The notes under the pieces are model-generated. The model was not told the DNA's origin and made no database searches. It saw only the letters and a program-made list of their open reading frames with translations. This document shows, in pieces, positions 4,143 through 60,974 of a stretch of DNA of 64,000 nucleotides; the first letter of the stretch is position 1, and each line of letters opens with the position of its first letter. The position numbers and the translations under genes are program-made. This DNA is from Raja brachyura (Eukaryota). The stretch is taken from assembly GCA_963514005.1 (NCBI GenBank), contig OY740797.1:24986001-25050000 (forward strand), given 5' to 3'.

Positions 4143-6050
4143 TGGGCCTGTACATTGGGCCGCCGTAGCGGCACTGCAGAGGGCTCAAAGTAAACACCCG
4201 GTGTTTAAAACAAGAAGTGGTACATGAAATATATTATGTTATTTTTAGCTTATATCACTGTAATGTACATTACTTCTAATAAATATAATACTACAAAAAA
4301 AAGAAAGAAAGAAAGGGTGCATGGGACTGACAATTTCGCTTTCCTAGTAGCGCGCATATAATTGATCTTTCAACTGCGACGAACACTTATTTTCCTCGGT
4401 TAATGTAATTTAATGTGATGAAAGGTTTAGTTTACAAAGTCTTCATTGCACTGCTCATGGTAAAAGGCGATGCATATACGCGATTTATTCCTGTCATGCT
4501 CATATAAGCATCAATAAGATTAAACCTTACCCTCCTGCGCTGCAAGGCATCAAGTCATAACCTGCTCAGGCTCTCCCTATAGCTCAGACCCTCGCGTCGT
4601 GGAAACATCCTCGTAAATCTGCTCTATACCCTTTCCAGCTTAACTACATCATGCGGAGTTGCAGAGGCAGATACGATAGGGGTATGTTAGACATTTTTAA
4701 ATAGGAAAATGCAGGGAATGGAAGGATATGTCTCGCAAAGAGCGGATATTAATTTAGCTTGGCATCATATTCGGCACTGAAATTGTGGGCCGAAGGGCCC
4801 ATTCATGTTCTATGTTTAGGAGTTGTCGAATTCTTTTTTGAGCAGTTATATGTTTGGAAATTGATGGGATGCTTTAGGTATTTGTCGTGTTCGCAATACA
4901 TGTCACGGTACTTAAACTGGACACGGTATGGTCGCGTGTCTGTGTGTGTTCAGTAGTTGTTGATGTGGGATTGAACTAGTGCGCTGTGCGGAGGGAAGAA
5001 CGTACTCAGTTGGGTGAAGCTTTCTGGCATATTTCCACCCAGAAATCGAATATGACGCTGACGTGTAATTATCATTCAGACTGAAGGTTCTGTTCTCCCA
5101 CTCGACGCTCTACTGAGTTCCAATGAAACTCGACGTAAAATGACGGATAACGTTTTGATTAATATTCTCAATTTGCAATTTAATCATTTGAATTCTGGTA
5201 CTACATTCATTTCCATTGTTTACATGTTTTGTGACGTTGCATTATTCTCAGATTTTCCCCCGTTTATAAAGTAATGTTTTCTTTCTTCCACCCACACTAA
5301 TACGCCACCACGCCCCCCACCTATTCTTTCTCTGAATTTGTTTAACAATTTTCATCATTAACTTTTGTTACTTCCGCTATAACGTTCTCGGCAGAAACTA
5401 ATTTATGTAGTCGTAGATGTGTTGTGACTCGTATTTTAACATTGATTTTCCTTGAAACTATGAGTTCCTAAAATCACGGTAGAAGAGTCTTTTACACAAG
5501 ATTGCGGTTAGAATATATCACGCTCATTATTCACCAAATGTTTCTTCCAACAACATACGTTTTGTTAACATTTATTAGATCGACTAGAAATAGCTACATA
5601 AATGGTCAAACATGGATATTCTGCAAAATAGCTCAATTCGCGATCTGCCAAAAATGTTCAATCATCTGGATATCACAGGTCTCGACTCGAACGCAATGTT
5701 TTTTTTTTGACTAAACGACTGCAACTACAATACTCGCTAACATATGATGGTTTCCATTTCATTGACTACCACCTGCAATCTTAATCTATACTCCTTTCGC
5801 TGGATGCAGTTGAGGTTCCGCCTAAAAAATTAATCCCAGACATAAAAATGATAACTAAATGATATGAAATCAAAGAACAATGATTGTCCAAAGATCTCAT
5901 GGTCCGACGATCACGAAAAACCAATTACTTACTTGGAGCAAAACCTCTAGTACAGACTGAGCAAGGGTTCGTTTATCGCTACTTTATAACTCTGTAGCAC
6001 ACCATATTTCTGTGTTTCTATTGGGATACGAAACATCAAGTAAGACTCAC

Positions 6051-6374
6051 CGTGTACAACAATCCTCGTGCCATTGCCTTTGGAACTGCTTCCTTTCCCG
6101 TCTCTCACACTGCAATAATAGATCCCGGAGTCACGGAAGCCCACGTCTAACATATGTAATTCGGCAAATCCCTTCGGGACATTGTTCATTATCATCCTCC
6201 TGTTTGGGGTGGGAGCCAAAGTCTCTTCTTGGCCCTCTTTCTTCCAGTATACACCCAGCAGTGCTTTCTGACCGAAGTTTGGGAAAGCACAGTATAAGGA
6301 TACATTTTCACCTTTCACCTTCGTTACCTTATCGGGAATCTGACGCACACTGAACGAGAAGGGCCGGTCAGTTA
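6051..6374 (-). CDS. Gene A: Ig V-set (VJ-type) exon, NKp30/NCR3-like receptor
   Basis: Acceptor ttctgacAG, donor G|GTGAGT, 324 nt, phase 1-1. Canonical Cys (SLYC), Trp (VYW), DSGIYYC and J-like KGNGTRIVV. Confidence 0.9.
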
Positions 6375-6570
6375 CTGTCAGAATTTAAAAAAACACACGT
6401 TAAACTTGTGAAATGACAATGAACCGATTGATAAAAATCCAAATGGCTGAAATAGATCGACCGAAAAGTCAGCGTACAGTAGGGTAGAAGTTTGAAAGTT
6501 GTACATCTTATACTTTTCACGGATTGACTTTTTCCCTGTTTTTTCATTTAATAGAGAGAAATATATTAAC

Positions 6571-19040: not shown

Positions 19041-19075
19041 GAAGATTAGTTTAGTCATGTCATTTATGTTGACCT

Positions 19076-19375
19076 TTATTCTGGACGGATGGGGCAAAGC
19101 GACATCCGATGCTGCTCAGAAGACGCCGCGCAACAAAATAAACGTTACACGCCTATTTCCCTTCCTCTTCGATCTTAATCAACCCAACATAACGGTGCAC
19201 TGTCAAAGAGACGGAAATAAGAACTTCCTGAGAAGAGATAGCAGAACATTCCGGGTAAGGGGCGCAACGGTTGTTGCTGCATGTGAGCGTGCTGACAGTA
19301 GGTTTACTTCCACATTCCACAAACTTGCGGGTTAAACTTTTTTAAATGAAACCGGTGACGAACCTATCATATACT
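19076..19375 (+). pseudogene. Decayed Ig V exon paralogous to gene B V
   Basis: GKATSDAAQK..INVT..NITVHCQRDGNKNFLRRDSR..KLAG*TFLNETGDEPIIY|GTGAG aligns with gene B V. Acceptor AG, both Cys and the Trp are lost; TAA at 19333. Confidence 0.8.
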
Positions 19376-22707: not shown

Positions 22708-22762
22708 ATGTTCCTGAAAGTGTCACCTTGGACGATGTATTTCCTTGGAATTTTGATTGCGG
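22708..22762 (+). CDS. Gene B exon 1: signal peptide (MFLKVSPWTMYFLGILIA)
   Basis: ATG 22708, 55 nt, donor G|GTACAC, phase 1. Confidence 0.8.
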
Positions 22763-23055
22763 GTACACTACGGCTTCTATTGCTTTTTATTTATGGGTCT
22801 TCAAATTACGCAGATATTATAGTTGTACCTTGCAATGTCATGCCGAATTGTCCGTAAAGTCATTGCTGTTGTATGAGTTCTAGAAAGGAGTGCAATTTAC
22901 GAAACCTTGGCGCGGACACAAAAAGCGGGCATAATACTTCGGTTCAATTATTTGTAAATATTTGGTCTGCGTGCAATAAGGTTTTTGCCAGCAGTGTTAA
23001 ATTTCCATTGCTGTATATCAATGGCTAAACTGGATTGTGCACCATCTATTGACAG

Positions 23056-23367
23056 CTGCTGAGAACAGGTCGGGCAAGACGATATCGAATGTTTTACAGA
23101 AGCCGGTGGTCAGTGGCATAAACTTTACCTGTCGGTGTTCCTTCCCCTTCACTGTAAACGTGTCAAACCTAACGGTTTTCTGGTGGAAAGATGGAAATAG
23201 AGGCTTCCTGAAAGAAGATAGCAGGAAAATCTTCTTGATAAGGGCAGGAGGCGCCTACCTTCACCTGCTGAATGTCACGGTCTCGGACGCCGGAACATAC
23301 TATTGTCTTGCAAAACAAGCGGGCCGAACGGTTGCGGATGGAACAGGAGAACAACTGATCGTATATG
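23056..23367 (+). CDS. Gene B exon 2: Ig V-set (VJ-type) domain
   Basis: ttgacAG acceptor, G|GTGAG donor, 312 nt. TCRC, VFWWKDG, DAGTYYC and J-like DGTGEQLIV. Confidence 0.92.
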
Positions 23368-24131
23368 GTGAGCGTACGGTACTTTAGTTGTAGCTCGAAT
23401 TTGAATTTTGCTTCACAAACGTCTTTAATCCAGAATACAAATGTGCAAAACGTTGGGAAATTATTCTAGATTGATTCGATTTAAAATATAGGTCAGAGGG
23501 CATGACAGCAATGATATTTGAGTTGATGTATATTGAAGGTAGTGAGTATAAGATGAATACATACAACGGTTTCAATTTGACACTGAACGCCGAGGCGGGG
23601 ATCCTCCTGAATGAATGAATGAATAGCCTTTATTGTCTCCTGATGTTTTCCTAATGATAATGTTATCAACATATAATTCTGTGAATTGAAAGAGCGGGGT
23701 TTTTACTTCCACAAAATAATTGAAATATAAAGTATATTTCTTGCGCCGAATTAGAGAATCAAGAAATTTTAGTCAAAGCATTCTCTGTAAGCCAGTCCAA
23801 GTCTGCAACTGTTTATGACTGATTATATTGGGAAGTTGAAATATTCACAACAGTACCGCGCCTTTGAAAAGTCGAAACTTGAAAGTTGATTCGCGCGTTT
23901 TAGCACAAGAGACAAGTGTGCAAATTAGTGGTCTTTTCGCAAATTAAATGTCAAGGGAATGCATGTCAAGGGAAGGTGGGGGGGGGGGGGGGGGGGGTCA
24001 ATCGCGATGAAGAACTCCTTTATCTGGGCTCCCGATTTAAAATTTATGATTAAATTAAGTAGCGTTGGAAAAAATGCTATTGGATGATGTAATCGACCTT
24101 TCCCCTTTTAATTATATTCCTCTTTACTTAG

Positions 24132-24437
24132 CTGTCCCTTCTCCTCTGAAGATTGTGGCTGTTCGGTCTAGAAATGCTGGGACTCATTTCCTGAAAATCC
24201 AGTGCAGAACGGCTGCCTTTTACCCGAAAGAATTTAATCTCACCTGGCATAGAAATGGCTCTGTCATCCAATCTGGATTTCGGCATGAACAACATTCAAC
24301 GGCAGACGGATTGTATGAAGTTATCAGCTCTTTGGATGAGAAACGGGCAGTCAAAGAAGGAACCATTTACACATGTAAAATTATTCACCGTTCTATGCTA
24401 ACTCCAGCAACTGCCAACTACACGGTTCCTCATGAAG
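24132..24437 (+). CDS. Gene B exon 3: Ig C1-set domain
   Basis: ttacttAG acceptor, G|GTAAC donor, 306 nt. C1 motifs IQC..AFYP....LTW, DGLY and YTCKIIH. Confidence 0.92.
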
Positions 24438-25196
24438 GTAACGTGTCCTACGCATAGAATAATGGATAATCCACTGAATAATAATATTAATAGTAAAAAT
24501 AAAATATAAGGATTTTTAAACGACCGTATTTTCTGCTGCAAATGTATTTTCCTAGAACTTGTGCAATGTTCCTATTTTCTGCCAGCGTAGACGGACGCTG
24601 TACAATCCACCCAGTCTATGTTGCCTCCCAGAAGAATTCCATCAATACAGTTCCCGCAATAGATCGCGCACCTGAAACCTATTCCATTTCACGTCATCTG
24701 TAAGTCCACTCTGATGCCCCCACAAACATCACCCCTTCCCGAGGAATAATGTAAAAATAATCAATTCACTCACTAAGCAGTTCCTTGGTAAAATCTCAGA
24801 GAATGTGCAATGTCCATGCAGACAGTCCCCGAAGCCAGGCCTGAGCTCGGATACCTGGAGATGTGAATCGATAGCACTATTGCTGTACCATTAACTCGGT
24901 GAATTTTTTTATTTTTGTTCGTTTATGGCTGAAATGGGTAATCAATTGCAACTCAGACACAGAAACTACCTAAAAATAATCCGCGCAAATACCGAAATAT
25001 GAAGTACTACTACTCCAATTTGTCCGTGGTCTCACTCTGATGCCACGGATGCCCAGAACAGAAAGGTCAGTGTGCGAATAGGAAAGGGATAAAGGGATTC
25101 TAAATAGTTAGCAACCGGGAAATCCAATAAGCCTTGGAAGACCTCGTACAAGTTTTCAGCGTGACGGGGGGGGGGGGGGGGGGGGGTTCACGTCCA

Positions 25197-26840
25197 CTAA
25201 AGAATTAGAGCAGGATGGAAGTTAGTGGTGTAATTAATGAAGGCCATGAGTTCTGCACGACTGCAGGAACTAGCTCCAGCGTAGTTGTCGATGTATTCGA
25301 GAAAGTGTTCGGGAGTAACGCCAGCGCATGTTTTGAACAAGCACTGCACCATGTACCCAACAAAATGGTAACCAGTAGCTGTGGCTGATGTCAGTGTCCA
25401 TGCTACAACTTTAACTTGGAGAAAGTGAGAGGAGTCAAAACAAATGTTGTTGAGGGTGACGACAAATTCCTCAAGGAAGAAACCGAGGTCGTGAGATGTT
25501 CCAACTCCCAACCAGTCTAATCCTACTACAGATGTCAGAGGTCATGGGGAGAAGGCAGGAGAATGGGGCTCGGAGGGAGAGATAGATCAGCCATGATTTA
25601 ATGGCGGAGTAGACATGATGGGCCGAATTGCCTAATTCTCTTATCCTTATGACCTTAATACCCCTCCCGCTCCCGCCCATGCACAGCTCCTCCCAACCCC
25701 TCCTCTCTGAAGCCCTATGGCCCCCACGCCCGACCCTGCTTCTTCACCTCTGCTCGACCCTAACCTCAGCCCTCACCCCTGTCATGTTTTCAACACCCCC
25801 TAACCTCCTTTGCGATACAGAACGGCCAGTCCTCGACAATTAGTGCTACATCCTACACCCGTGCAGAACTTAACTTCACCACTAATTTCCATCCTGCCCT
25901 CAAATTTACCTCAACTATCTTTGATACCGCCCTATCCTTCCTTTCTCTCTCTCACTCCATTCACCCCACCAGCCGCCGCAATCCTGAACATCATCGTCGG
26001 ACATTTCCGTCGCCTCCAACCTGATCCCATTATTAATCACATATTTACATCTCCATGCCTTTCCGCCTTTTGCAGACTGTTCCTCCACAACTATTGTTCA
26101 TTCATCCCTTTAAACCCAGACCACCCCATCCTGAGGTAACTTTCTCTACAACTGCAGGAGATGTGACACTTGTCCCTGTACCTTCTTCCTCGCCTCTATG
26201 CACGGACTCCGACAATCTTTCCAGCTTGGACAGTAGTTCACATGCACCTTCTCTAATCTTATCTACTGCATACGTTGGTCTGGATGCGGGGTCCTGTACA
26301 ATAGTGTGGAAAGGAGTGGATTCTGCAGCCATTTAGCTGAGCATTCTCTGACCTACTGGATCTCCCAGTATTTTAATTCCCCTTTTCATTCCTACACTGA
26401 ACTTTCTGTCTGAGGACCAGCCTTGCACAGAGTAGCGAAAGCAAATTCGACGAACAGCACCTCGTATTTCACTTTAATAGCAGACAAGCCAGCGGCATGA
26501 ACGCTGGATTCTCTCATTTTAGTAATGCCCATAAGCACTCACTTCCCTCTCCACTCCCTCGCCCCCCCCCCCCCCCCCCCCCCCGCACTCCCATTTGCCC
26601 CCTTTCTCCTCTAAATATGGATTTACCAGTCCCACAATTCGCAACGATGTATCCTTCTTGGGATAACGTCGGCCTATCAGGGAACCTCCCTGCGTGGGGC
26701 CATATCGTGCTAGTCCCGATTTCTCCTGTTTTTTTCTTGCTTCCGCCCCCACCCCACAATCAGTTTGAAGAAGTGTCCCGACACAAAACGTCACCTCGCT
26801 ATTTTCTCCAATGATGCTGCCTGACACGCTGAGTTACGCC
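25197..26840. mobile_element. Penelope-like element fragments in a gene B intron (both orientations, CR1 tail between)
   Basis: YIDN..G..SCSRAELMAFINYTTNFHPAL on the minus strand; NFHPALKF and GIY-YIG remnants on the plus strand. Confidence 0.7.
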
Positions 26841-27244
26841 AGCATTTTCAGTTTATTTCTGAGAACTAACTTGTTGGCTCTTGCATCAATTGGGGACTGT
26901 TAGTGGGGAGAAGACGTCTGTAATGATTCACTCCTGGCCAGCGTCAGTACCATTTATATCTCCTTCAAGATTTGGTGAACAGAATATATCCAAATTAATG
27001 TATTATGTTCCACAATGTTCTGTTTCCCAACGGTCAATATCCCACAAGGTTCAATTAAGATCTATTTATTTCACTCGTAATCGCGCCATAAATTGAAATT
27101 GTTGGCTCTTTGCCGCATTCCACGCGGTTCTGGTGAAATCTGTTGAGTGAACATTTGAAATATCTTGCTTTGTTTTCCGCAAAGTCTACTTTGAAATAAC
27201 TGAATTAAATATAAACATTTGGTCATCGGTTTACCCTCCCACAG

Positions 27245-27346
27245 CTGTCGAGGGTTTATCAGCTTCTCTAATCGCTGGAAGTATCCGAGGTGCAGTGTTA
27301 ATTTTAATGTTCATCGTTATCGTCGTGATGACAATTATATATAGAG
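27245..27346 (+). CDS. Gene B exon 4: transmembrane (AVEGLSASLIAGSIRGAVLILMFIVIVVMTIIYR)
   Basis: ccctccacAG acceptor, G|GTATGT donor, 102 nt, phase 1-1, long hydrophobic stretch containing one Arg. Confidence 0.88.
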
Positions 27347-27669
27347 GTATGTTTCTCATCCATTTTTTAAGTATCATCCCAGTATAATATTATAATATAA
27401 TAGTATTGATAATTACATGATTATCTTGATAATAAAGGAAATGAAACATTTGCACGGGCAAAAATTATGATTATAATAAACAGCACCGACTTAACGAAGA
27501 TATTCAATTTTGCATGTGACTAATGTTTGATTATCACATATTTTGAATTCTATGTTTTAATTCGACACATTATCACATAGCAGCCAGCATTTAATTGTAC
27601 CTATTGGTCAAGATCTGAACATCTGTGAATGTTGTGATAAATGTTGTTTCATTGGTTGATTGATACAGC

Positions 27670-27910
27670 AGACAAACAGGCATTTTAACCCATCGATTCT
27701 ACGCCAGCCATCGATCATCCGTTCACACTAGGTCTACGTTAACCTACTTTCGCATCCACTCAATACACAGTGGGGGCAATTTATAGAGGACAGTTAACCC
27801 ACAAATCCGCACATTCTTGGGATGTGGGTGTATACTGGAGCAACGGATGAAACCCACGTGGTCACAGGGAGAAAATGCATCATACTCCGCGTTTACCTGT
27901 TGCACCACTG
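27670..27910 (-). mobile_element. V-SINE copy (diverged)
   Basis: CCCACGTGGTCACAGGGAGAA V-domain segment and CR1-like tail. Confidence 0.65.
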
Positions 27911-28092
27911 TGTCGTCCAACAGTTTGGGAAAAGCGTGGCAGAAACAACGTGGTTTAAGCCTTCATACATATGTAGTGAAGCCGTATGTAGTGAAATTCT
28001 ACCGTGCAATTATCACATGATATTACGTTCTTTGCGTGCTCAAAAACACCATGTCGCACGGCCATTGATCGCTATTATTTTTTTCCGAGCAG

Positions 28093-28136
28093 GTGCAAAG
28101 AAGCGTACAGTAAATACAAATCGGACACAAAGTTGG
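28093..28136 (+). CDS. Gene B exon 5: juxtamembrane cytoplasmic exon (GAKKRTVNTNRTQSW)
   Basis: T-rich tract then gcAG acceptor, G|GTAAGG donor. In frame with the TM exon and supplies a basic stop-transfer KKR. Confidence 0.7.
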
Positions 28137-28399
28137 GTAAGGCTAATTTAATAAATGACTATTCCATTTGTGAAAGTAGAGACAGGATTGTGCTTTTGTT
28201 GAAACCAATCCGTTTTAATAAGGACCACGTCTTATTCTGTTTGAACGTATGCCCAATCCGTGAACTTCACCCACTGTATCACAAAGGAGGACATAAAGAA
28301 CAATACAAGATGCATTTACAGGAGTTCGCATTTCTTATAAATGTCATATATATTGTTTACACCAGGTGTGGTGAAAGGAATATTTTCATTGTACCTTAC

Positions 28400-29830
28400 T
28401 GTTTCTTGTCCAGCCACAGGCGAGATTCCGGAGTACTGGAGAGTGGCCATGTTGTTCATTTGTTTAAGAAGGGAAGTAGAGGGAATCCAAGTCTCAACCA
28501 GTTGGATCTAAATATAGGTCGGTTGAACACACGTTAGTGGTTAGGAACCGATTGGAAAGACTTCTTCAAGAGAGGATCTACTGACATTGGAAAGAGAATG
28601 GACGATTAGCGATAGCCAGCACGACCTAACACGTTTTACTGATTGTTCTGAACAGATGACAAAGGAGATTGATGCCGACAGGGCAGTAGCTGCTACAAAC
28701 TCGAATTTTAGGAAAGCTTAAGATAAAGTCCCTCTTGACATATCTTGATCTTGATATCAAAAGATCAAGATCACGATATACAGGATATTCTGTAACTTGG
28801 TGATATTAATTCAGAACTGGCGTCTTCAGAGCGACAGAGGTTTGTCGGATGATCTGCCTGAAGGTCTGCGATCAGTGGAATTCCACACGGACCTCTGTTA
28901 TTTGTGATATATATAAATGACGTAGACATAAATCGAGATGGATTGTTGAGTAAATTTGCAGAACAACAGAACAGGAGGAGTTGCAGACAGCGAGGAGGGC
29001 TGTCGGAAGATACAGAGGGTTATAGATCATCGATAGAAGTGGGTGGAGAAATGGCAGGCGGAGCATGATGGAGTATAACCCGAGCAGTCTGAGCTGTTGC
29101 ACTTTTGGATGGCGCATGTAAGGATAATGTCAAGATGTTAAAGTGAATTGATGTGCAGGGAGGTCATGGAGTCCAAGTTCATAGCTCACTGAGGGCAGCA
29201 TGAAGAGGAAGACTAGTAAAGATGGCGAATTATGTGTTTGCCTTAATTGCTAGGGAATTGAATACAAGAGTAAAGAAACCATGATACAGCTCTTTAGTTA
29301 AGCCCCATTAGTAGTTTTCCGTGCGGTTCTGGTCGTCTAATTATAGAAAGCCTATGGGGAGGATGCAGAAGAGGTTTACCAGATGCGCTTGGATTAGAGA
29401 GGTGCAAGTGAATGAAAGGGTTGTATAAACTTGGATTGTTTTCACTGAAAATTCGGAGAATTAGGGCAGCATTAGTACAGTAAAAGGTATAGATAGGGTA
29501 GACCGTCAGAACCTTTTCCACAGAATAGAAATGCCCAATGCTAGAGGGCATAGCTATAAGGTGTGTGGGAGAAAGTTTGGTGGATGTATACGGGGTAGGT
29601 TCTTTACATGGCGATTGTTGTTTGCCTGGAAGGCATTACCAGGTGCGGTGGTGGAGGCAGACACGATAGTGGCCTTTAAGAGGCGTTTAGATGGACACAT
29701 GCTCCTGCAATGAATAAGAGGATATGGATCATATACAGATAGATGAGATCAGTTTAACATGGCATCGTGTTCAGCACAAACATTTTGGGCTGAAGGGTGC
29801 GTTCCTATGCTGTACCTGACTATGTTCTAT
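28400..29830 (+). mobile_element. Old degenerate CR1 LINE (intronic)
   Basis: VVHLFKKG, SKFA and GRFFT..AW..LP remnants and a CR1-like 3' UTR. Confidence 0.75.
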
Positions 29831-30034
29831 GTTATGTGCAGTTATCATTTTGATCTGTCCAGTTGGGACTGTTTGCCCCACAGTCGATTAGACTCAGGAA
29901 ATTGGTCTTCGTGCGAGAAGTCATTCGAGACAAAACAAGAAATAATTGTCCCTCGTATATTCCTGCCAGCGCATTCCGAGCGAAAGCTTCATTTGTAGTA
30001 TAACTAATCTTAAAATAAGTTAATTAACTTACAG

Positions 30035-30150
30035 AAAGAAGATGAGAACGTTAGCCGCAATTCGATGCACGCCCATTGGGATCTTGTCCGCAGCAAAGAA
30101 TAAGGGAAACCTGAAGAGCACGTTGAGAGCCCTGCGTATGCAAAGCTAAA
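30035..30150 (+). other. Gene B candidate cytoplasmic exon with an in-frame stop
   Basis: cttacAG acceptor, AA|GTACGT donor. Phase-0 reading is KEDENVSRNSMHAHWDLVRSKE*GKPEEHVESPAYAKL (TAA at 30101). Confidence 0.45.
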
Positions 30151-30257
30151 GTACGTTTCACGCTTTTACTCCACACATCTGAGAATACAGATAGGTCTTA
30201 CTCGGAGAAATGTGTCGTTTTCTTGTCCAATTAACAATAGCAAACATTTGTGCACAG

Positions 30258-30389
30258 AACGCAATTATGGCTGCTGCTGATAACGAACTGACATACGCTT
30301 CCTTGAACACGTCAAGCTCCAAAAATAAATTGAAACGGCAACACGAAGAAATAAGTGTAATATATAGCGGGGTGAAATATAACAACTAA
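30258..30389 (+). CDS. Gene B terminal exon with tandem ITIMs (LTYASL, VIYSGV)
   Basis: Reads NAIMAAADNELTYASLNTSSSKNKLKRQHEEISVIYSGVKYNN*. In frame from exon 5 via the AG at 30256-57, or from the TM exon via the AG at 30239-40. Confidence 0.75.
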   Translation, partial: NAIMAAADNELTYASLNTSSSKNKLKRQHEEISVIYSGVKYNN

Positions 30390-31429
30390 ATTCAACGGGC
30401 TATATGGAAGTGAATCGAAAATGTATCAGTTACTCTGGAAATGAATTATTCGTTAATTTGATTATATTCATAGAGTCCCAGAATCATAGCATCATTGTGT
30501 CATGCAACATAGAAACAGGCCCTTGGGCCAAACTGCATGCCGTCCAATGTGCCCCAATAGTCACACCTAACCGCGTTTGGCCCATATCCCTCTAAACGTT
30601 CCCTATATATGTACCTACCCAAATATCCTATACATGCTGTTATAGTATCTGACACAGCTCGTTGCAGACACCCGCTGTGTGAAAACAGTATCCGTCAGTT
30701 TTTTTTAAATTGAATCTCTCTCCTCTCACCTTCAACATATGTATTTTAGTTTTACATTCCCGTACTATGGGTAAAATGCTCTGTGCATTCGTCCTATCTA
30801 TTCACAAAATGTAATTCTTCACTTTCATTGCCGCGGGCCTACTTTTTAATGTACTGTGAAGTTATAATAGGCACGTTTACTTCTTAGTTGAGGGGGCTCA
30901 CTTATAATTGTTCTTAGACCATCTAATTGTTATTACAATTCCATTATTCCCTATTAATTATGTTTACCTTCACATGCGTGAATTGGCATTCCAAATTCCA
31001 GTTATTGCTTTATTATGAAGTTTGGTGCATGTGGTTATCAATTGATTATTTTCTTTCACAACAAATAATTAATTCAAGATTCCGATTTAGTTAATGTTAG
31101 TGAATTCGATATTTTATACATCCATAATGCCTCAATCGCATGACTTCAAATGTTAAGCATTTTTATTTCATTGGATTACTCTCGTCAACCTGACAGCACG
31201 TGCAAATTTCGCGCCGTGATATTAGAGACACCCTTATCACCTTCTCGTTTGATCCATCAATAAGCTAAGGAATTTTCGGCACCAGGTGTCCTTAGTTCCC
31301 CATTGCAGACCTCTTAGATATCTAATTGAATATGGTGAAATACTCTGGGGCTCAATTCGCTTTGCAACCATTAGGCCTTTTTGTTGTTGCAGGGGTGGGC
31401 TTATAATCATTTGGCCGTGAACGTCGTTT

Positions 31430-34560: not shown

Positions 34561-36759
34561 TTCTTAATGTCTTGTAGTGGAACCATACTGGTCTGTCTTC
34601 TCCATTAGAAAGATACTCAAGATTTGCAATAATCGAAAAAACTCAGCAGGTCATGCAGCAGGTGGACAAAAATGCTGGAGAAACTCAGCGGGTGAGGCAT
34701 CATCTATGGATCGAAGGAAATAGGCAACGTTTCGGGTCGAATTCACGTCAATAACATTTGTATATTTTGTTTTAAATTTAAGAAAATTTGCATATCACAT
34801 ACGATTTTAAATTATAATCATGTTGTTCCTTAGAATAGTGGAATGCATGTTAGAGGTCTGAAATATTTGGTTTTCTATTTGAATCAAACATTCTGAAATG
34901 TGCACTGTGACTTCTAAGCAATTCAAGTTTTCAGAATAAAATATTTGCTATCCTTTATCGAAACCTAATGCAGGCATTTTTCCTTGTCAATTAATCAAAA
35001 CATATATGTCACAATTATGCAGTGTGATTTGTTTTGGAGATATGATCCAGGTCAAAAGTTCACAAGAGGCATATTCACAACAAGATTATTTATGACGCTG
35101 CAAAAAACCCAACCACAATGGCCTTACCAATGGAAAAATATGAGATAACCCAGAGTTATAGACATACACAACACAAAAAGATCAATCTAATTGGCATTGA
35201 CCATCGGTTTCTTTGTCATATTCCTTCACTGAGACGATTTTTATTCCAAGTTTCAAGTCAAAGATTCTCCCCACCCACTCCCCGCCTCAATAAACAATCA
35301 CACAAACACTTTGTACTTCTGGCCACACACCGTTGATAAACTTTGAGTCAATGGATTGGTGCATACCGCAGCTAACCTGAATTAGTACGTCACTACTGTG
35401 ACTGACTTCATCAACAAGTGCACAGAATATTGTGTGCAGACAAAGACAATCTGAGTGTTCCCCAACCCGAAACCATGGATGTTTCCGGAATGTTAACGCG
35501 AGGTACATTGACAGGTCAAGGCCAGGTCTCCTGCATACAAGTCAAACGACCCCGAGCAGTACAAGAAGGCCTGCTAATAATCGCTATCAATTCATGGGAG
35601 TGACACAATTTGGGGGACGCACAATATCTTGGTGGCCGCGCGCACGTGCATGCGCGCGCACACACACACGCACACACGCGCGCACACACACACATACGAG
35701 GCTTTGGAGGCTCAACCATGGGCCCTGTGGACCAAAGATATGATCTGTGCTGTGGACGGTAACATCGGGAGCTGACCTGGTGGTGACCGACTCCGAACTC
35801 CAGCAACAGCAGCTTCGTCCGCCCTGAATCGTGGGGCTTGAATCGGCCCGTTCACGGGGCCTTTCATCGCCCGGCGCGGCTTAAAATCGGCCGGCGGGGG
35901 CTTCAACATCGGGACCCCCGATCAGCTTGATGCAGCAGTTTGATTTTAAGCCACGCCGGGTGATGAAAGGCCCCGCGAACGGGCCAATTTAGCCCTTAGA
36001 AAGCGTCTGGTACCCGCTTGAATCGATCAAAAGCTACAATGGATCACAATGTGATAAATAACACTTAAACAAATAAAACTGAAACAAATAAAGGCAAACA
36101 GAAGAATCATCCTTGGAAGGGGAAAGAGAGAAAGAGAGAGATGGCAAAAAATACTAAATAACGTGAGTGACCGTGAATGAGAGACTTACCTGCAAGCCAA
36201 CCAGGAAACGAGTTCGACCGGAGCCCTTAATGACTTGACTCATTTAAATCCGATACCCATTTAAATCTTTCCCATCCACCAATACATCCAATTAGTTCAA
36301 ATGGTAATTGTACCGGCATCAGACAGCTTTAAGAAATTCTCCGTGAATACCTTCAGTAATACTTGAAGGTCAAAGCACAATTGGTGACACATCGTTAATA
36401 CGATGTTAATAGAAACATTTAGCCAGCGCTTAACAGTGACATCCCCACTGCCTTGTGCAAAGCGGAGTTTTTCATTGATTTTTTTTCGCCAAATTTCAAA
36501 ATCCGAATTACAAAACATGTTGTCCCCCACCTACAAAACATGGGAGGGAAGTGCCCCCACCCCCAGAATTTCGGTCCATGCCTGCTATCATCTCCGCAAA
36601 GCCATCAAGGATGCCAAGAGGCAATACCGGGACAAACTTTAATCAAGGTACTCGACAAAGTGCAGACCCGCTGGGTCTGTTCTCCCCAACGCGCGGTGGG
36701 AGGGGGGGGGGGGGGGGGGCTGCGGCATCACACTCACATTAACCACCTGCCATACACAC

Positions 36760-39700
36760 AGGGAGGGAGGGGGAGACGGGAGGGGAGAGAGGGAGAGCGA
36801 GAGGAGGGGGAAAGGGGAGAGAGGGCGGAGAGAGAGGAGGGGGAGAGAGAGAGGGGGAGAGAGCGGGGAGGGGAGGCGGAGGCAAGAGTGTAGCGGGGAG
36901 AGGAGAGGAGGTGGGGGGAGAGGATGGGGAGAGAGAAGAGGCGAGAGATGAGGGGAGAGAGAGGAGGGGGTGAGAGCGGGGAGGGGAGGCGGAGGCAAGA
37001 GTGTAGCGGGGAGAGGAGAGGAGGTGGGGGAGAGGATGGGGAGAGAGAAGAGGCGAGAGATGAGGGGAGAGAGAGGAGGGGGAGTGGGGGAAAAGAGAGG
37101 GGGCAAAGGGAAGGGGTAGGGAGTGGGGAGGGGGTTGGAGGAGGGCAGAGGGGGTTGGAGCGGAAAGAGGGTTGGAGGAGGGGAGAGGTGGGGTTGGAGG
37201 AGGGGAGAAGGAGGGTGGAGGAGGGGAGATGGGTGGGGCTGAGAGGGGAGAGGGAGGGAGGAGGAGAGGGGGAGATGGAGAGGGGGCGGAGTGGGGAGGG
37301 GAAGGGGAGGGGGACAGGGGAGAAGGGAGAAAGGGGGTGGGGAGGGGGAGGGGGAGCGGGAAGGGGGAGGGGGAGAGGGGAGGGAGGACGGAGGAGGAGA
37401 TGGGGAGAGGGTGAGGAGAGGGGAGATGGAGAGGGGGGAGAGAGGAGGGGAGAGGGGTGAGGAGAGGTGTGAGGAGAGAGGGGGAGGAGAGAGGGGGAGG
37501 AGAGAGGGGGAGGAGAGGGGGGAGAGGGGGGAGGACGGATGGAGATGGGGGAGAGATTGAGTAGGGGAGGAGATGGGGAAGGGAAAGAACGGGGAGGGGG
37601 GACGGGGAGAGAGGGGTAGGGGTGGAAAAGGTTGGGGGATGTGAGAGTGGAGGGGGAGAGATTGGAGGGGGAGAGAGAGGAGGGGGAGAGAGAAGGGGAG
37701 AGGGGTGGGAGGTGGAGAGAGATTGGAGGGGAGAGAAGAGGGAGAGAGTGGTGTGGGAGAGTGGAGGGGAGAGAGAAGGGGGAGATGGAGAAGGGGAGAG
37801 GGGTGAGGGGAGAGGTGTGAGGAGAGAGGGGAGGAGAGGGGAGAGATGGGGAGGATGACGGGTGAAGATTGGGGAGAGATTTGGGAGTGGAGGAGAATGG
37901 GAAGAAAGAGAGCGGTGGATTGGGAGAGGGGAGAGCGGGGAGGGGGGAAGGGGAGAGAGGGGTAGGGGTGGGAGAGGTAGGGGAGGGGATGTGAGAGTGG
38001 TGGGGGAGGGCTGGAGGGAGCGGCTGGGGAAGGGGAGGGAGGGATAGGAGGGAGGGAGAGGGGGGGAGGGAGAGATGGGTGGGGGTGGAAGGGGAAAGAG
38101 GGATGGGGAGAGTGGGGGAGGGAGGAGGAGGGGGAGGGAGGAGGAGGGGGAGGGAGTAGTGGAGGGAGAGAGGGAGGAGATGGGGAGAGTGGAGGGGGAG
38201 AGTGCAAGGGGAGCGAGAAAAGGGGGAGAGGGGGGTAGAGAAGGGAGAGCGAGAGAACGGGGTGGGGAGAGGCAGGGGGTGGAAGGAGGGGAGGGAGGGG
38301 GGAAAAGAGATTGGAGGGGAGAAAGAGATTAGAGGGAAAGATAGAGTAGAGGGGAGAGAGAGATTAGAGGGGAGAGAGGGAGTAGAGGGGAGAGAGAGAG
38401 TAGAGGGGGATGGAGGGGGCGAGAGAGGACAGGGTGAGGGAGGGGCGGGAGGAGGGGGTGAGAGTTGGAGGGGGGAGAGAAAAGGGTGGGGAGAGGTGGA
38501 GGGGGAGAGGTGGACGGGGGAGAAGAGGAGGGGGAGAGGTGGAGGGGAGGAGGGGAGGGTGGAGATGGGGAGGAGAGGGGAGGGTGGAGAGGGGAGGAAA
38601 ATAAGAGGTGGAGGGGGAGTGGAGGGGGGTAGAGGGGAGGGGGCAGAGTGGGGGAGAGGGAGGGAGAGAGGAGGGAGGAGAGAGGGTGGTAAAGGTGGGG
38701 GGGAGGGGGGAGGTGGAGAGAGATTGGAGGGTGAAAGGAGAAGGGGAGTGGAGGGGAGAGAGAAGAGGGGAGAGNNNNNNNNNNNNNNNNNNNNNNNNNN
38801 NNNNNNNNNNNNNNNNNNNNNNNNNNNNNNNNNNNNNNNNNNNNNNNNNNNNNNNNNNNNNNNNNNNNNNNNNNNNNNNNNNNNNNNNNNNNNNNNNNNN
38901 NNNNNNNNNNNNNNNNNNNNNNNNNNNNNNGAGAGACGGTGGGAAAGAAGTGGGGAGAGAAGGGGGAGAGAGAAGGGGAGAGCGGGAAAGGCATGGGGCA
39001 TAAGGGAGGGGGAGGGGGAGGAGGAGAGTAGAGGGGAGAGAGTAGTGGAGAGAGAGAGTAGAGGGGAGAGAGTGGAGAGGAGAGAGAGAGAGAGTAGAGT
39101 GGAGAGAGAGAGAGAGAGAGTGTAGAGGGGAGAGGGGGAGAGGGGGAGGGATGGGGAGAGAGGAGGGGGTGAGAGCGGGGAGGGGAGGCGGAGGCAAGAG
39201 TGTAGCGGGGAGAGGAGAGGAGGTGGGGGGAGAGGATGGGGAGAGAGAAGAGGCGAGAGATGAGGGGAGAGAGAGGAGGGGGAGTGGGGGAAAAGAGAGG
39301 GGGGCAAAGGGAAGGGGTAGGGAGTGGGGAGGGGGTTGGAGGAGGGCAGAGGGGGTTGGAGCGGAAAGAGGGTTGGAGGAGGGGAGAGGTGGGGTTGGAG
39401 GAGGGGAGAAGGAGGGTGGAGGAGGGGAGATGGCTGGGGCTGAGAGGGGAGAGGGAGGGAGGAGGAGAGGGGGAGATGGAGAGGGGGCGGAGTGGGGAGG
39501 GGAAGGGGAGGGGGAGATGGGAGAAGGGAGAAAGGGGGTGGGGAGGGGGAGGGGGGGCGGGAAGGCAGAGGGGGAGTAGAGGGCAGGGAGGACGGAGGAG
39601 GATATGGGGAGAGGGTGAGGAGAGGGGAGATGGAGAGGGGGGAGAGAGGAGGGGAGAGGGGTGAGGAGAGGTGTGAGGAGAGAGGGGGAGGAGAGAGGGG

Positions 39701-41480
39701 AGGAGAGGGGGGAGAGGGGGGAGGACGGGGGGAGAACGGATGGAGATGGGGGAGAGATTGAGTAGGGGAGGAGATGGGGAAGGGAAAGAACGGGGAGGGG
39801 GGACGGCGAGAGAGGGGTAGGGGTTGGAAAGGTTGGGGGGATGTGAGAGTGGAGGGGGAGAGATTGGAGGGGGAGAGAGAGGAGGGGGAGAGAGAAGGGG
39901 AGAGGGTGGGAGGTGGAGAGAGATTGGAGGGGAGAGGAGAGGGAGAGAGTGGTGTGTGAGAGTGGAGGGGAGAGAGAAGGGGGAGATGGAGAAGGGGAGA
40001 GGGGTGAGGAGAGAGGTGTGAGGAGAGAGGGGAGGAGAGGGGGGAGATGGGGAGGATGACGGGTGAAGATTGGGGAGAGATTTGGGAGTGGAGGAGAATG
40101 GGAAGAAAGAGAGCGGTGGATTGGGTGAGGGGAGAGCGGGGAGGGGGGAAGGGGAGAGAGGGGTAGGGGTGGGGGAGGTAGGGGAGGGGATGTGAGAGTG
40201 GTGGGGAGGGCTGGAGGGAGCGGCTGGGGAAGGGGAGGGAGGGATAGGAGGGAGGGAGAGGGGGGAGGGAGAGATGGGTGGGGGTGGAAGGGGAAAGAGG
40301 GATGGGGAGAGTGGGGGAGGGAGGAGGAGGGGGAGGGAGGAGGAGGGGGAGGGAGTTGTGGAGGGAGAGAGGGAGGAGATGGGGAGAGTGGAGGGGGAGA
40401 GTGCAAGGGGAGCGAGAAAAGGGGGAGAGGGGGGTAGAGAAGGGAGAGCGAGAGAACGGGGTGGGGAGAGGCAGGGGGTGGAAGGAGGGGAGGGAGGGGG
40501 GAAAAGAGATTGGAGGGGAGAAAGAGATTAGAGGGAAAGATAGAGTAGAGGGGAGAGAGAGATTAGAGGGGAGAGAGGGAGTAGAGGGGAGAGAGAGAGT
40601 AGAGGGGGATGGAGGGGGCGAGAGAGGACGGTGAGGGAGGGGCGGGAGGAGGGGGTGAGAGTTGGAGGGGGGAGAGAAAAGGGTGGGGAGAGGTGGAGGG
40701 GGAGAGGTGGACGGGAGAGAAGAGGAGGGGGAGAGGTGGAGGGGAGGAGGGGAGGGTGGAGATGGGGAGGAGAGGGGAGGGTGGAGAGGGGGAGGAAAAT
40801 AAGAGGTGGAGGGGGAGTGGAGGGGGGTAGAGAGGAGGGGGCAGAGTGGGGGAGGGGGAGGGAGAGAGGAGGGAAGAGAGTGTGGTAGAGGTGGGGGGGA
40901 GGGGGGAGGTGGAGAGAGATTGGAGGGTGAAAGGAGAAGGGGAGTGGAGGGGAGAGAAGAGGGGAGAGAGGAGGAAGAGAGAGGAGGGAGAGAGAGGAGG
41001 GAGAGAGAGGAGGGGGAGAGAGGAGGGGGAGAGAGAGGGGGAGAGAGAGGGGGAGAGAGAGAGGGAGAGAGAAGGGGGAGAGAGACGGTGGGAAAGAAGT
41101 GGGGGGAGAGAGAAGGGGGAGAGCGGGAAAGGCAGGGGGCATAAGGGAGGGGGAGGAGGAGAGTAGAGGGGAGAGAGTAGTGGAGAGAGAGAGTAGAGGG
41201 GAGAGAGTGGAGAGGAGAGAGAGAGAGTAGAGTGGAGAGAGAGAGAGTGTAGAGGGGAGAGGGGGAGAGTGGGAGGGATGGGGAGAGAGGAGGGGGTGAG
41301 TGAGGGAGGGGGGGTGAGAGGGGAAGGAGAGAGAAGAGGGGGAGTTGGAGGGTGAGAGAAGAGGAAGGGGAGAAGTGGAAGGGGGAGAAGAGGAGGGGGT
41401 GGAGAAGAGGGGAGGGTGGATGCTAGAAGGGATGGAGGGGCAGGGGGAGTGGAGGGAGGTGGAGAGGGAGGGGTAAATAG
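36760..41480 (+). repeat. G/A-rich polypurine low-complexity tract with ~2.2-kb internal duplication
   Basis: Almost entirely G/A on the + strand; marker motifs recur at an offset of about 2200 (e.g. AGTGCAAGGGGAGCGAG at ~38201 and ~40400). Confidence 0.95.
38775..38930. other. Assembly gap (156 N)
   Basis: Run of n characters. Confidence 1.
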
Positions 41481-41846
41481 GGAGGGGTGGTAGGCCAACT
41501 TGCTCTATTTGATCTTGCTTGCACGCCAGACCACGTGAAGGTTCCAATCTCCCACACCTGTCCCATTGTGATGGCATATGTAAATGAGATCCATTGTGAT
41601 TAGACATCTGTCAGATGGCTCTGACTCGTGCAGCTGTTTGATTTTAGTAGGCCCACCTGAAGGTTCCAATCTTCCAGCCCTGCCCCATTGTGATGTCATA
41701 TCATAGGTAAATTAGATCCATTGTGATTGGACGTCTGTGAGATGGCGCTGTGACACATGCAGCAGTTTGATTTTAATTTTTTTGGATTTTTTAACTAAAA
41801 AGGCAGGGAAATTAATAACCAAATGTTCTAATTTTCAAAACAAAAT

Positions 41847-59599: not shown

Positions 59600-59764
59600 G
59601 TATTTCTCGATTTTTCTTTTGTTTTCATCTTCTTACTGACCTACACCCTCTGTGATCAACACCCTATATTGAACGCACATACACTTTCACGCATCTTTTA
59701 AAAGTACGATTAATTGTCTGTCCTCGTCTGTTATGGGATATTTTTTGATTTTCTTCTGCTACAG

Positions 59765-60085
59765 TGGCCGTTGATGCTCACTACCAAGTCGATCAATCTC
59801 CTTCGAGCCAACACGTGATCTTATATTCAAATACCACTCTCTATTGCATTATTGGACTATCGCAAAATAGTCCACCTGTGGAAATTTATTGGTGGAAACT
59901 TGGCGAACAGAACTTTCTGCAAGCAGCCTCTGACAGTAGGAAGATATTTGTTCGTTTTACACAAGGTGGAGCCTCCTTGCATCTATTGAATATCCATGCA
60001 GATGATGCTGGAGTCTATTACTGTGGAGTGGGAATACAGGGAAACGAGATTGTGAATGGATCTGGCTCCAGAATCAAAGTCTTCG
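59765..60085 (+). CDS. Gene C exon 2: Ig V-set (VJ-type) domain
   Basis: ctgctacAG acceptor, G|GTATGT donor, 321 nt. VDQSP, TLYC, IYWWK, DAGVYYC and J-like NGSGSRIKV. Confidence 0.92.
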
Positions 60086-60974
60086 GTATGTGTAACAGTA
60101 TAAGCAAACGTGCTACAAGATGGAGATGTTATTCTATTATTGTTCAATTCTATAATTCGGGAAAGCAATGTGGCCAGGATTTCCATTCGAAGTACCCATG
60201 TTCTATGTAATATTACAACTTAAGATCCCAGGACAACTGTCTAATTGGTTGGTTTGTTTGCTGTAAATATGAGGATGTTGCTCCAAATTCAGCGAAACAC
60301 AGATTCCAACACAGTTACTATCTTGAGCAGTACTTTCCGAGGCCGATTAATGCGATATAATATCTGCACTGGGTGGGAGATTTAAAGCTGGAAGAGAGGA
60401 GGGGCAAGACAAAACTTTGGATGTAATAGACCGGCACAGTTGGGAAGCATTTCTTTGGACCATTTTATTTCCAACTGCCGGTGCGGCATTAACCGTCGCC
60501 CTGTTACGGTCACTTCTCCCGTCTCCAACATTCTCCCTCATCGTGGACCCGCCCTGCCGGCCTTCTATCTTCGCTGGATTTGTTTTAATATCCAACGCGG
60601 TATCAAATTGCCGGAGCGGTATCTAATGTCTCCTCATCTCCCCCCAGTAAATGTAAATGGCTACACCTAATATTCCTGTGGGTTTTTTTTTAATTTACCA
60701 ATTAATTTATTCTTACTTCAAGAAAACTAGGTAATATATGGCGCTCAGTCTGGGGTTTGAAAAAAAGCAAATCCGTAAAAGTTGCGAATTAGTTAAAGAT
60801 AAACTGACCATTTTTTGTAAAAACATTCAACAGAGGTAGCAATTCACACTATTCGAAAACATGGGCAACGATTGGAAGAGCTAAAATAAGGTTTTCATTC
60901 TTCTCAGATGCTTGCTGTCGTTGCTCATTAAGGCGTTTATTTTTAAAGGATGTGTACAGAATCAGATTGCACGG

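Follow-up and report, generated by a model that had tools for sequence, protein, structure and literature searches.

The window analysed here is a 64,000-nucleotide (nt) stretch of the 2.7 Gb genome of Raja brachyura (assembly GCA_963514005.1, contig OY740797.1, forward-strand positions 24,986,001 to 25,050,000; G000:C17:24986001-25050000 in our coordinates). Its plus strand carries at 22708-30389 a gene of seven exons, which encode a leader, a V-type immunoglobulin (Ig) domain, a C1-set Ig domain, a transmembrane (TM) segment and a tail. It belongs to a tandem set of three V-C1-TM receptor paralogs, of which we designate the window gene copy A and its sisters, ~75 and ~160 kb upstream, copies B and C. 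We propose, with a probability of roughly two in three, that the comparisons below capture a recent inhibitory-to-activating receptor conversion. In such a conversion, a duplicate of a V-C1 immune receptor with a tail bearing ITIMs (immunoreceptor tyrosine-based inhibitory motifs) would have gained an arginine in the membrane by one base, and its tail exon 6 would have lost its donor, its first tyrosine and its reading frame, the outer domains staying conserved. The likely product would be a tyrosine-free receptor of 295 amino acids (aa), predicted to be stable against nonsense-mediated decay (NMD) and to dominate over a form of 316 aa. Its Arg239 would bind an adaptor of the FcR-gamma or CD3-zeta type and so confer an activating signal. 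Four lines of evidence argue for the conversion: the ancestral state at the arginine codon was Gly, the broken exon is a real ancestral exon damaged in steps, the ectodomain is conserved, and the same change recurs in the family. They favour one of the two branches of the original prediction, which had offered either a recent conversion or a splicing toggle.

A derived arginine in the transmembrane segment

Exon 4 (27245-27346, +) encodes the TM segment and, by comparison with the TM exons of the family, is of the inhibitory type. Its codon at 27286-27288 (+) reads CGA (Arg239), one base from the GGA (Gly) of both paralogs. This is the sole amino-acid change of the window copy in the exon, and it places a basic residue in the TM segment 19 residues before the helix end. 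The original prediction had pointed out the one-base distance and guessed SIGGAV as the unmutated sequence, and both paralogs do encode precisely this. Beyond 30389, A and B have DNA in common that is absent from C; hence, the Gly of B and C is ancestral, as is also argued by the ITIM-bearing shark homologs, which have Gly and the same two-module tail. An ancestral Arg is ruled out on these same two grounds. The shared DNA belongs to a stretch of ~520 bases beyond the stop codon (window 30390-30912), which is missing from paralog C and partly common to B: a 3' insertion grouping A with B. That an old activating exon donated the Arg by conversion was rejected, since the 102-nt TM exon has only 2 copy-specific bases; no TM exon of the old activating type was found in the 291 of 410 kb of the window cluster that were examined. 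Among the single nonsynonymous changes open to the TM exon, 3/228 give Arg at the two adjacent Gly positions, which were picked after seeing the data.

A search for RNA led only to six DNA-like sequencing runs, from two studies, which bear on these letters; of these, run X4 gave no contig. The Arg letter is without clean confirmation from reads: runs X1, X3 and X5 each yield one contig with G at 27286. None of these was accepted as the window copy, as the X1 contig agrees letter for letter with the three-paralog majority and appears collapsed, and those of X3 and X5 carry letters of paralog C. Run X6 gives two contigs at 27286, with G in 3.6 of the 7.3 depth; the other (3.7) is not G, its letter being only inferred. 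Judging from X6, the Arg is probably common to a second, related organism represented in the reads (organism B; its exon 6 contig comes from run X3).

Stepwise damage to exon 6 and its predicted products

Exon 5 (28093-28136, +), the juxtamembrane part of the tail, is intact, ends in phase 0 and has zero copy-specific changes. The exon after it is broken. At its ancestral bounds, exon 6 spans 30035-30145 (+), and in paralogs B and C it encodes two tyrosine motifs and joins exon 7 in frame through a phase-0 donor. In the window copy the first of these motifs (30068-30079, +) is destroyed by Tyr285His and Leu288Trp, a premature TAA stands at 30101-30103 (+) where both paralogs and organism B have TAT, and the ancestral donor at 30146-30147 (+), GT in the paralogs, is CT. 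A cryptic donor, GTACGT (30151-30156, +; phase 2), which is also present in paralog C, is the only GT scoring >1 bit in 30035-30257 on a crude matrix (a table of approximate donor frequencies).

Much of what the original prediction had read from this exon is borne out: when read from exon 5 it stops at TAA 30101 before PAYAKL, an exit at 30150 is in phase 2 and incompatible with the acceptors at 30258 (phase 0) and 30241 (phase 1), and the paralog comparison that it had recommended gives GGA and TAT in both sisters. Its description of the splice sites as good holds for one half only, for at the 3' end the ancestral donor is dead and 30151 is merely cryptic. It had also counted a single tyrosine motif in the exon, where the paralogs reveal two. 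The suspicion of consensus errors was settled in part: a contig yielded by runs X1 and X2 (both from one sample, which may be that of the assembly itself) has 0 differences from 29950-30245, so that the stop and the phase mismatch of exon 6 are real and no assembly error, the Arg letter being left without such clean support.

The order of the lesions can be read from organism B. Of the 18 copy-specific letters in 29985-30215 its contig (run X3) has 13, His285 and the dead donor among them, and it has TAT at the position of the stop codon and TTG at that of the Trp codon. On this alignment the damage to exon 6 is shown to be stepwise, with the donor loss and Tyr>His dated before the organism B split and the stop and Leu>Trp after it. 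Ten of the 14 tail changes are common to organism B where testable, and an eleventh (30259) probably so, as against ~4.9 expected (P 0.011 for 11; ~0.03 for 10, calculated by hand); the 2.8% divergence between A and organism B used here is roughly summed from seven contig pieces assigned to the window copy by eye. With the organism B letters, the dead donor alone puts exon 7 and both of its ITIMs out of frame, and thus the inhibitory motifs would already have been cut off before the stop arose. A single base is also missing from the window-like contig of organism B, at 30386 immediately ahead of the exon 7 stop, which is thereby shifted.

Every transcript that enters exon 6, be it by use of the GT at 30151 or by intron retention, would encode the same 295-aa protein, with a tail of 38 aa lacking any tyrosine motif. 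The intron after exon 6 is 107 nt long, and its retention leaves no later junction. With the stop 47 nt upstream of the cryptic junction, the last one possible, escape from NMD is predicted, the escape zone being 50-55 nt before a junction (PMC1854916). Exon 7 (30258-30389, +) holds the ITIMs LTYASL (30288-30305) and VIYSGV (30357-30374), to which the window copy has in-frame access only by skipping exon 6. As the original prediction had it, the 28136>30258 join is in frame and restores both motifs. Hence, a short ITIM-free tail holds for all exon-6-entering forms (295 aa), not for the skipped form (316 aa). We infer that entry into exon 6 is favoured over skipping, given the intact AG of its acceptor, a usable GT 5 nt beyond the dead donor, the 107-nt intron, an exon 7 without sign of constraint and the organism B frameshift at the end of exon 7. 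The 27346>30241 junction that had also been suggested is unlikely, and together with the acceptor at 30241 it was rejected: it would skip exon 5, whose sites are intact, and 30258 best fits the Tyr-to-Tyr spacing of the sharks (15 vs 14 residues).

A conserved ectodomain and a released tail

We defined a copy-specific change as a site where B equals C and differs from A, excluding two codons with three different letters. In the introns 252/6416 sites (0.039) are copy-specific. Against this rate, the leader, V, C1 and TM exons together with exon 5 have 5 nonsynonymous changes in ~622 sites, where 24.4 would be expected under neutrality (Poisson P 2e-6), along with 6 synonymous changes in ~194 sites, and remain open over 819 nt. 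Exons 6 and 7 have 14 nonsynonymous changes in 192 sites (Fisher P 4e-6 versus the ectodomain; P 0.02 above the intron rate). The ectodomain has thus stayed conserved and the tail has been released. Loss of constraint across the whole coding region, as a pseudogene would have it, is not found; a very recent death is still compatible with the counts.

Recurrence of the Gly to Arg change in the family

A second cluster of the same genome holds three related loci with codons at ~19811459 (L039), ~19844225 (L040) and ~19869585 (L041) on the minus strand of G000:C17. In L039 the codon is GGC and both ITIM exons are intact; in L040 and L041 it is CGC, and the tails are broken by an insertion that the two have in common where the first ITIM exon begins and by frameshifts and a stop, the last ITIM exon having a stop and a frameshift. 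By comparison of these loci, L040/L041 is a second, apparently finished, Gly>Arg conversion in this genome. The C1 exons of L039 and L041 are 98.7% identical and their flanking introns 92.7% and 85.7%, which suggests gene conversion or strong constraint acting on the exon. L040 itself has a different C1 exon with a duplicated 3' piece of an L039-type C1 behind it, which points to recombination among members of the family, and L038 has two TM-like exons after one C1 exon and a last tail exon with a stop and its tyrosines lost.

Comparable pairs are seen in sharks. The horn shark has P0008, with Gly and an ITIM tail, and P0009, 87% identical to it, with Arg at the same motif position and a tail of 16 aa. 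In the zebra shark, P0013 (Gly) is matched by P0020, with Arg one residue later and a shortened tail with two tyrosine motifs; P0019 of the epaulette shark has its Arg one residue later, as in P0020. In an ectodomain tree of 30 rows, all within the family and with no outside outgroup, the pairs of an Arg protein and its Gly sister form 100/99+ clades, and the window gene falls in a 100/100 clade with P0001 and P0003-P0005; 12 sequences were left out (5 by name, 7 without the C1 end motif), and L039-L041 are not in the tree. We further surveyed 106 proteins with a C1 match, from which 20 without a scored TM were dropped (among them the Arg-bearing P0004 and P0005), leaving 86. A tail YxxL/I/V is missing in 18/29 proteins with Arg near the TM start vs 16/57 without Arg (P 0.005), a crude count in that some of the Arg lie outside the helix, the models may be truncated and the rows are related. 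The family also includes older activating types with Arg three residues earlier, the closest batoid relatives of the window gene among them; in the Raja brachyura genome no match to P0001 closer than copies A, B and C was found.

From this we tentatively put forward a broader scheme, which we consider possible and by no means favoured: the inhibitory TM segment may carry, in the Gly-Gly pair at its outer end, a one-base switch for the paired receptors of cartilaginous fish, with at least four independent Arg gains (window gene, L040/L041, horn shark and carpet sharks), each accompanied by loss or shortening of the ITIM tail. The window gene would then be in mid-conversion, yielding both a pure activating form, by entry of a broken NMD-escaping exon, and a form with Arg and two ITIMs.

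Weighing of the alternatives

Several observations count against a conversion. On the side of the arginine, the Asn three residues before Arg of the NxxR motif is absent (Gly236 stands there), and in the family's old activating types the Arg stands three residues earlier than Arg239. On the side of selection, exon 7 alone has 6 changes vs 4.1 neutral (P 0.23, not significant); the tail of paralog B is also at about the intron rate (8/192), with one ITIM tyrosine lost without an Arg gain; conservation of the ectodomain after the tail break is weakly shown, at <=4-5 changes vs 8.7 (P 0.07-0.13); and had the gene been neutral for half the branch, an absence of damage would still have P 0.22. The donor of exon 1, GTACAC, is weaker than the GTAAAC of the paralogs on the approximate table. 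To these are added the 316-aa product with Arg and both ITIMs that the in-frame join permits, and a loss of pyrimidines in the exon 6 acceptor of the window copy (at 30022 and 30031 since the split, besides G>A at +1), an erosion that speaks for skipping. As to recurrence, P0009, P0019 and P0020 are predicted protein models seen without their DNA, and the survey, besides its crudeness, has exceptions in both directions: tyrosine motifs persist in 11 proteins with Arg and are missing from 16 that have no Arg (e.g. P0017).

Some of these points would fit an exon 6 that has been dead and skipped ever since the donor loss, the stop and the His being neutral decay and the product a dual or weakened inhibitory receptor of 316 aa, with Arg and two ITIMs, akin to KIR2DL4 or the rat Ly49 intermediates. 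With the 28136>30258 join in frame and both ITIMs intact, an erosion of the acceptor pyrimidines that continued after the organism B split, a combined state of Arg and tyrosine motif in the zebra shark P0020, and a precedent for charge gained first and ITIM lost later (PMC2213150), this is an alternative of some substance. We nevertheless regard it as improbable, because exon 7 shows no sign of constraint (6 changes in 105 nonsynonymous sites vs 2 in paralog C), the organism B deletion at 30386 shifts its stop, and a usable GT lies 5 nt past the dead donor, with the AG intact and a next intron of only 107 nt. The two forms might also be the ends of a regulated splice toggle, activating at 295 aa and ITIM-bearing at 316 aa, as the other branch of the original prediction had it. 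The sequence allows for either isoform, each of which is predicted to be stable, and skipping is indeed in frame; yet the arrangement is not conserved, the paralogs being open and in phase and organism B without the stop, and the exon 6 splice sites are degrading rather than maintained. With the stop and phase mismatch thus being lesions of a single copy, the toggle finds no positive support and is quite unlikely.

An unlikely explanation too, if a little less so than the toggle, is a young decaying pseudogene in which the Arg is a chance event among many. It would account for the several independent lesions of exon 6 together with the weakened leader donor; Arg or Lys would arise somewhere from 20/228 single nonsynonymous changes of the TM exon; the P of 0.22 for zero ectodomain lesions under half a branch of neutrality leaves it room; and activating KIR and Ly49 genes are themselves short-lived, often ending as pseudogenes (PMC2213150). 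On the other hand, all lesions are in the tail, the 819 nt upstream are open with 5 amino-acid changes vs 24 expected, and the lone TM change is the same Gly>Arg that goes with tail loss in L040/L041 and P0009. That the stop and phase shift are errors of the assembly is next to negligible, for all that the Arg letter was not directly seen in a read-derived contig: across 29950-30245 the X1/X2 contig does not differ from the assembly, and most of the copy-specific letters of 29985-30215 are found in organism B as well. A recent conversion is therefore the reading that we prefer.

Relationship to known paired receptors

The principle of deriving activating from inhibitory receptors is already known from KIR and Ly49. 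As in the window gene, few nucleotide changes there add a TM charge and remove the ITIMs, the process is recurrent and passes through dual intermediates, and the paired ectodomains stay alike (Abi-Rached and Parham 2005, PMC2213150); in rat Ly49s3 the charge was gained before the ITIM loss (PMC2213150). Unlike in those systems, the present family is an unrelated one in cartilaginous fish, the Arg is near the outer helix end in place of a central Lys, the ITIM loss begins with a splice-donor mutation, and two neighbouring glycines are the sites of repeated gain. A Lys in the middle of the helix is what DAP12 pairs with.

In paired receptors of the activating kind the tail is short, and a TM Arg or Lys binds an adaptor that carries an ITAM (immunoreceptor tyrosine-based activation motif) (PMC3533184). 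LILRA members with an Arg associate with FcR-gamma, as does KIR2DL4, which has an ITIM besides (PMC3533184, PMC2413239); the NxxR motif has been described for FcR-gamma partners and XFL TM1 (PMC2413239). The window gene resembles activating LILRA, KIR2DL4 and Xenopus XFL TM1 in its TM Arg and its predicted short tail, and differs from the FcR-gamma-coupled Arg receptors in having no NxxR and in its C1-set domain in place of KIR/FcR-type domains. Two zeta-family adaptor TM exons are present in the genome (L032, L033); when the TM exon was modelled in complex with a pair of L033 exons, the scores were 0.10 and 0.11, controls not having been folded.

The mammalian SIRP family (SIRP-alpha, -beta and -gamma) is comparable in its ectodomain of V and C1-set domains and its paired inhibitory and activating members, and among PDB entries the family profile matches SIRP-alpha (2wng) best (E 2.5e-16). 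The SIRP ectodomain is V-C1-C1, whereas here a single C1 exon, not two, lies between V and TM, and the likeness is one of sequence only. SIRP-beta uses DAP12 (PMC3533184). The window gene is SIRP-type in its predicted working and, with one C1, is not classed as SIRP proper. Closest of all are the SIRP-like/NCR3LG1-like proteins of cartilaginous fish, which have the same leader-V-C1-TM layout, with 57-67% V and C1 identity between the window gene and batoid members; the shark members P0008, P0010 and P0013 have the same ITIM modules as the window gene's family copies. The closest batoid relatives differ in having the older activating-type TM exon and a short tail, whereas the window copy has an inhibitory-type TM exon with a new Arg. 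No publication on the cartilaginous-fish V-C1-TM family was found in the open-licence literature, supplements aside, and the available excerpts of PMC10751288, PMC6795676 and PMC12227049 have 0 matches to SIRP.

The birth of activating from inhibitory receptors has been described mainly in mammalian KIR and Ly49, and the present case would extend this cycle to cartilaginous fish. Its main value lies in the ordered intermediates and the repeated change at the same TM glycines: the steps can be ordered from living copies, namely two intact sisters, the intermediate organism B and a putatively finished conversion in the second cluster. Sister genes one TM base apart offer a clean system for asking whether a single Gly>Arg recruits an ITAM adaptor, and the family supplies candidates for the poorly known paired receptors of natural killer or myeloid type of sharks and rays.

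Gene, family and genomic surroundings

The N-terminus encoded by exon 1 (22708-22762, +; leader peptide, 18 codons plus 1 base) matches P0001. Exon 2 (23056-23367, +) encodes the V-type Ig domain, with 57-64% identity to the batoid proteins P0001-P0003, and exon 3 (24132-24437, +) the C1-set Ig domain (PF07654, E 1.2e-9, passing the cut-off); both are open. The gene thus belongs to the family as we define it, with one V-type and one C1-set domain, a TM segment and a tail, each on separate exons. Its best homologs are sawfish and ray proteins, and family members are labelled by NCBI as 'tyrosine-protein phosphatase non-receptor type substrate 1-like', 'SIRP-beta-1-like' or 'NCR3LG1-like' (e.g. 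XP_051884512.1, XP_072926654.1 and XP_062922643.1).

Paralogs B and C are open across all 7 exons (353 codons) and stand in the same cluster as inhibitory partners with near-identical ectodomains, with V-C1 identities to the window copy of 91% and 96%, respectively. The V exon of paralog B (L007-L008, G000:C17:24.934-24.942 Mb) carries 14 nonsynonymous vs 2 synonymous changes, and this copy further has Tyr replaced by Asp in one ITIM and by Cys where the TM segment ends, a pattern of either diversifying selection or early decay.

Two clusters on G000:C17, at 24.72-25.11 Mb and 19.68-20.28 Mb, together hold ~30 V-C1 genes. The former looks like a cassette of 75-85 kb with 4-5 gene types in three repeats, and the window V exons at 5947-6384 (-) and 59749-60210 (+) are part of it. 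A relic V exon of the same subfamily, with a TAA inside, lies 5' of the leader at window 19057-19374 (+); no C1 or TM matching it was found before 22700, and the stretch is unalignable to the paralog regions examined. Window 36400-41600 is a long purine-rich tract of low complexity, G-rich on the plus strand, which includes the only run of N (38775-38930).

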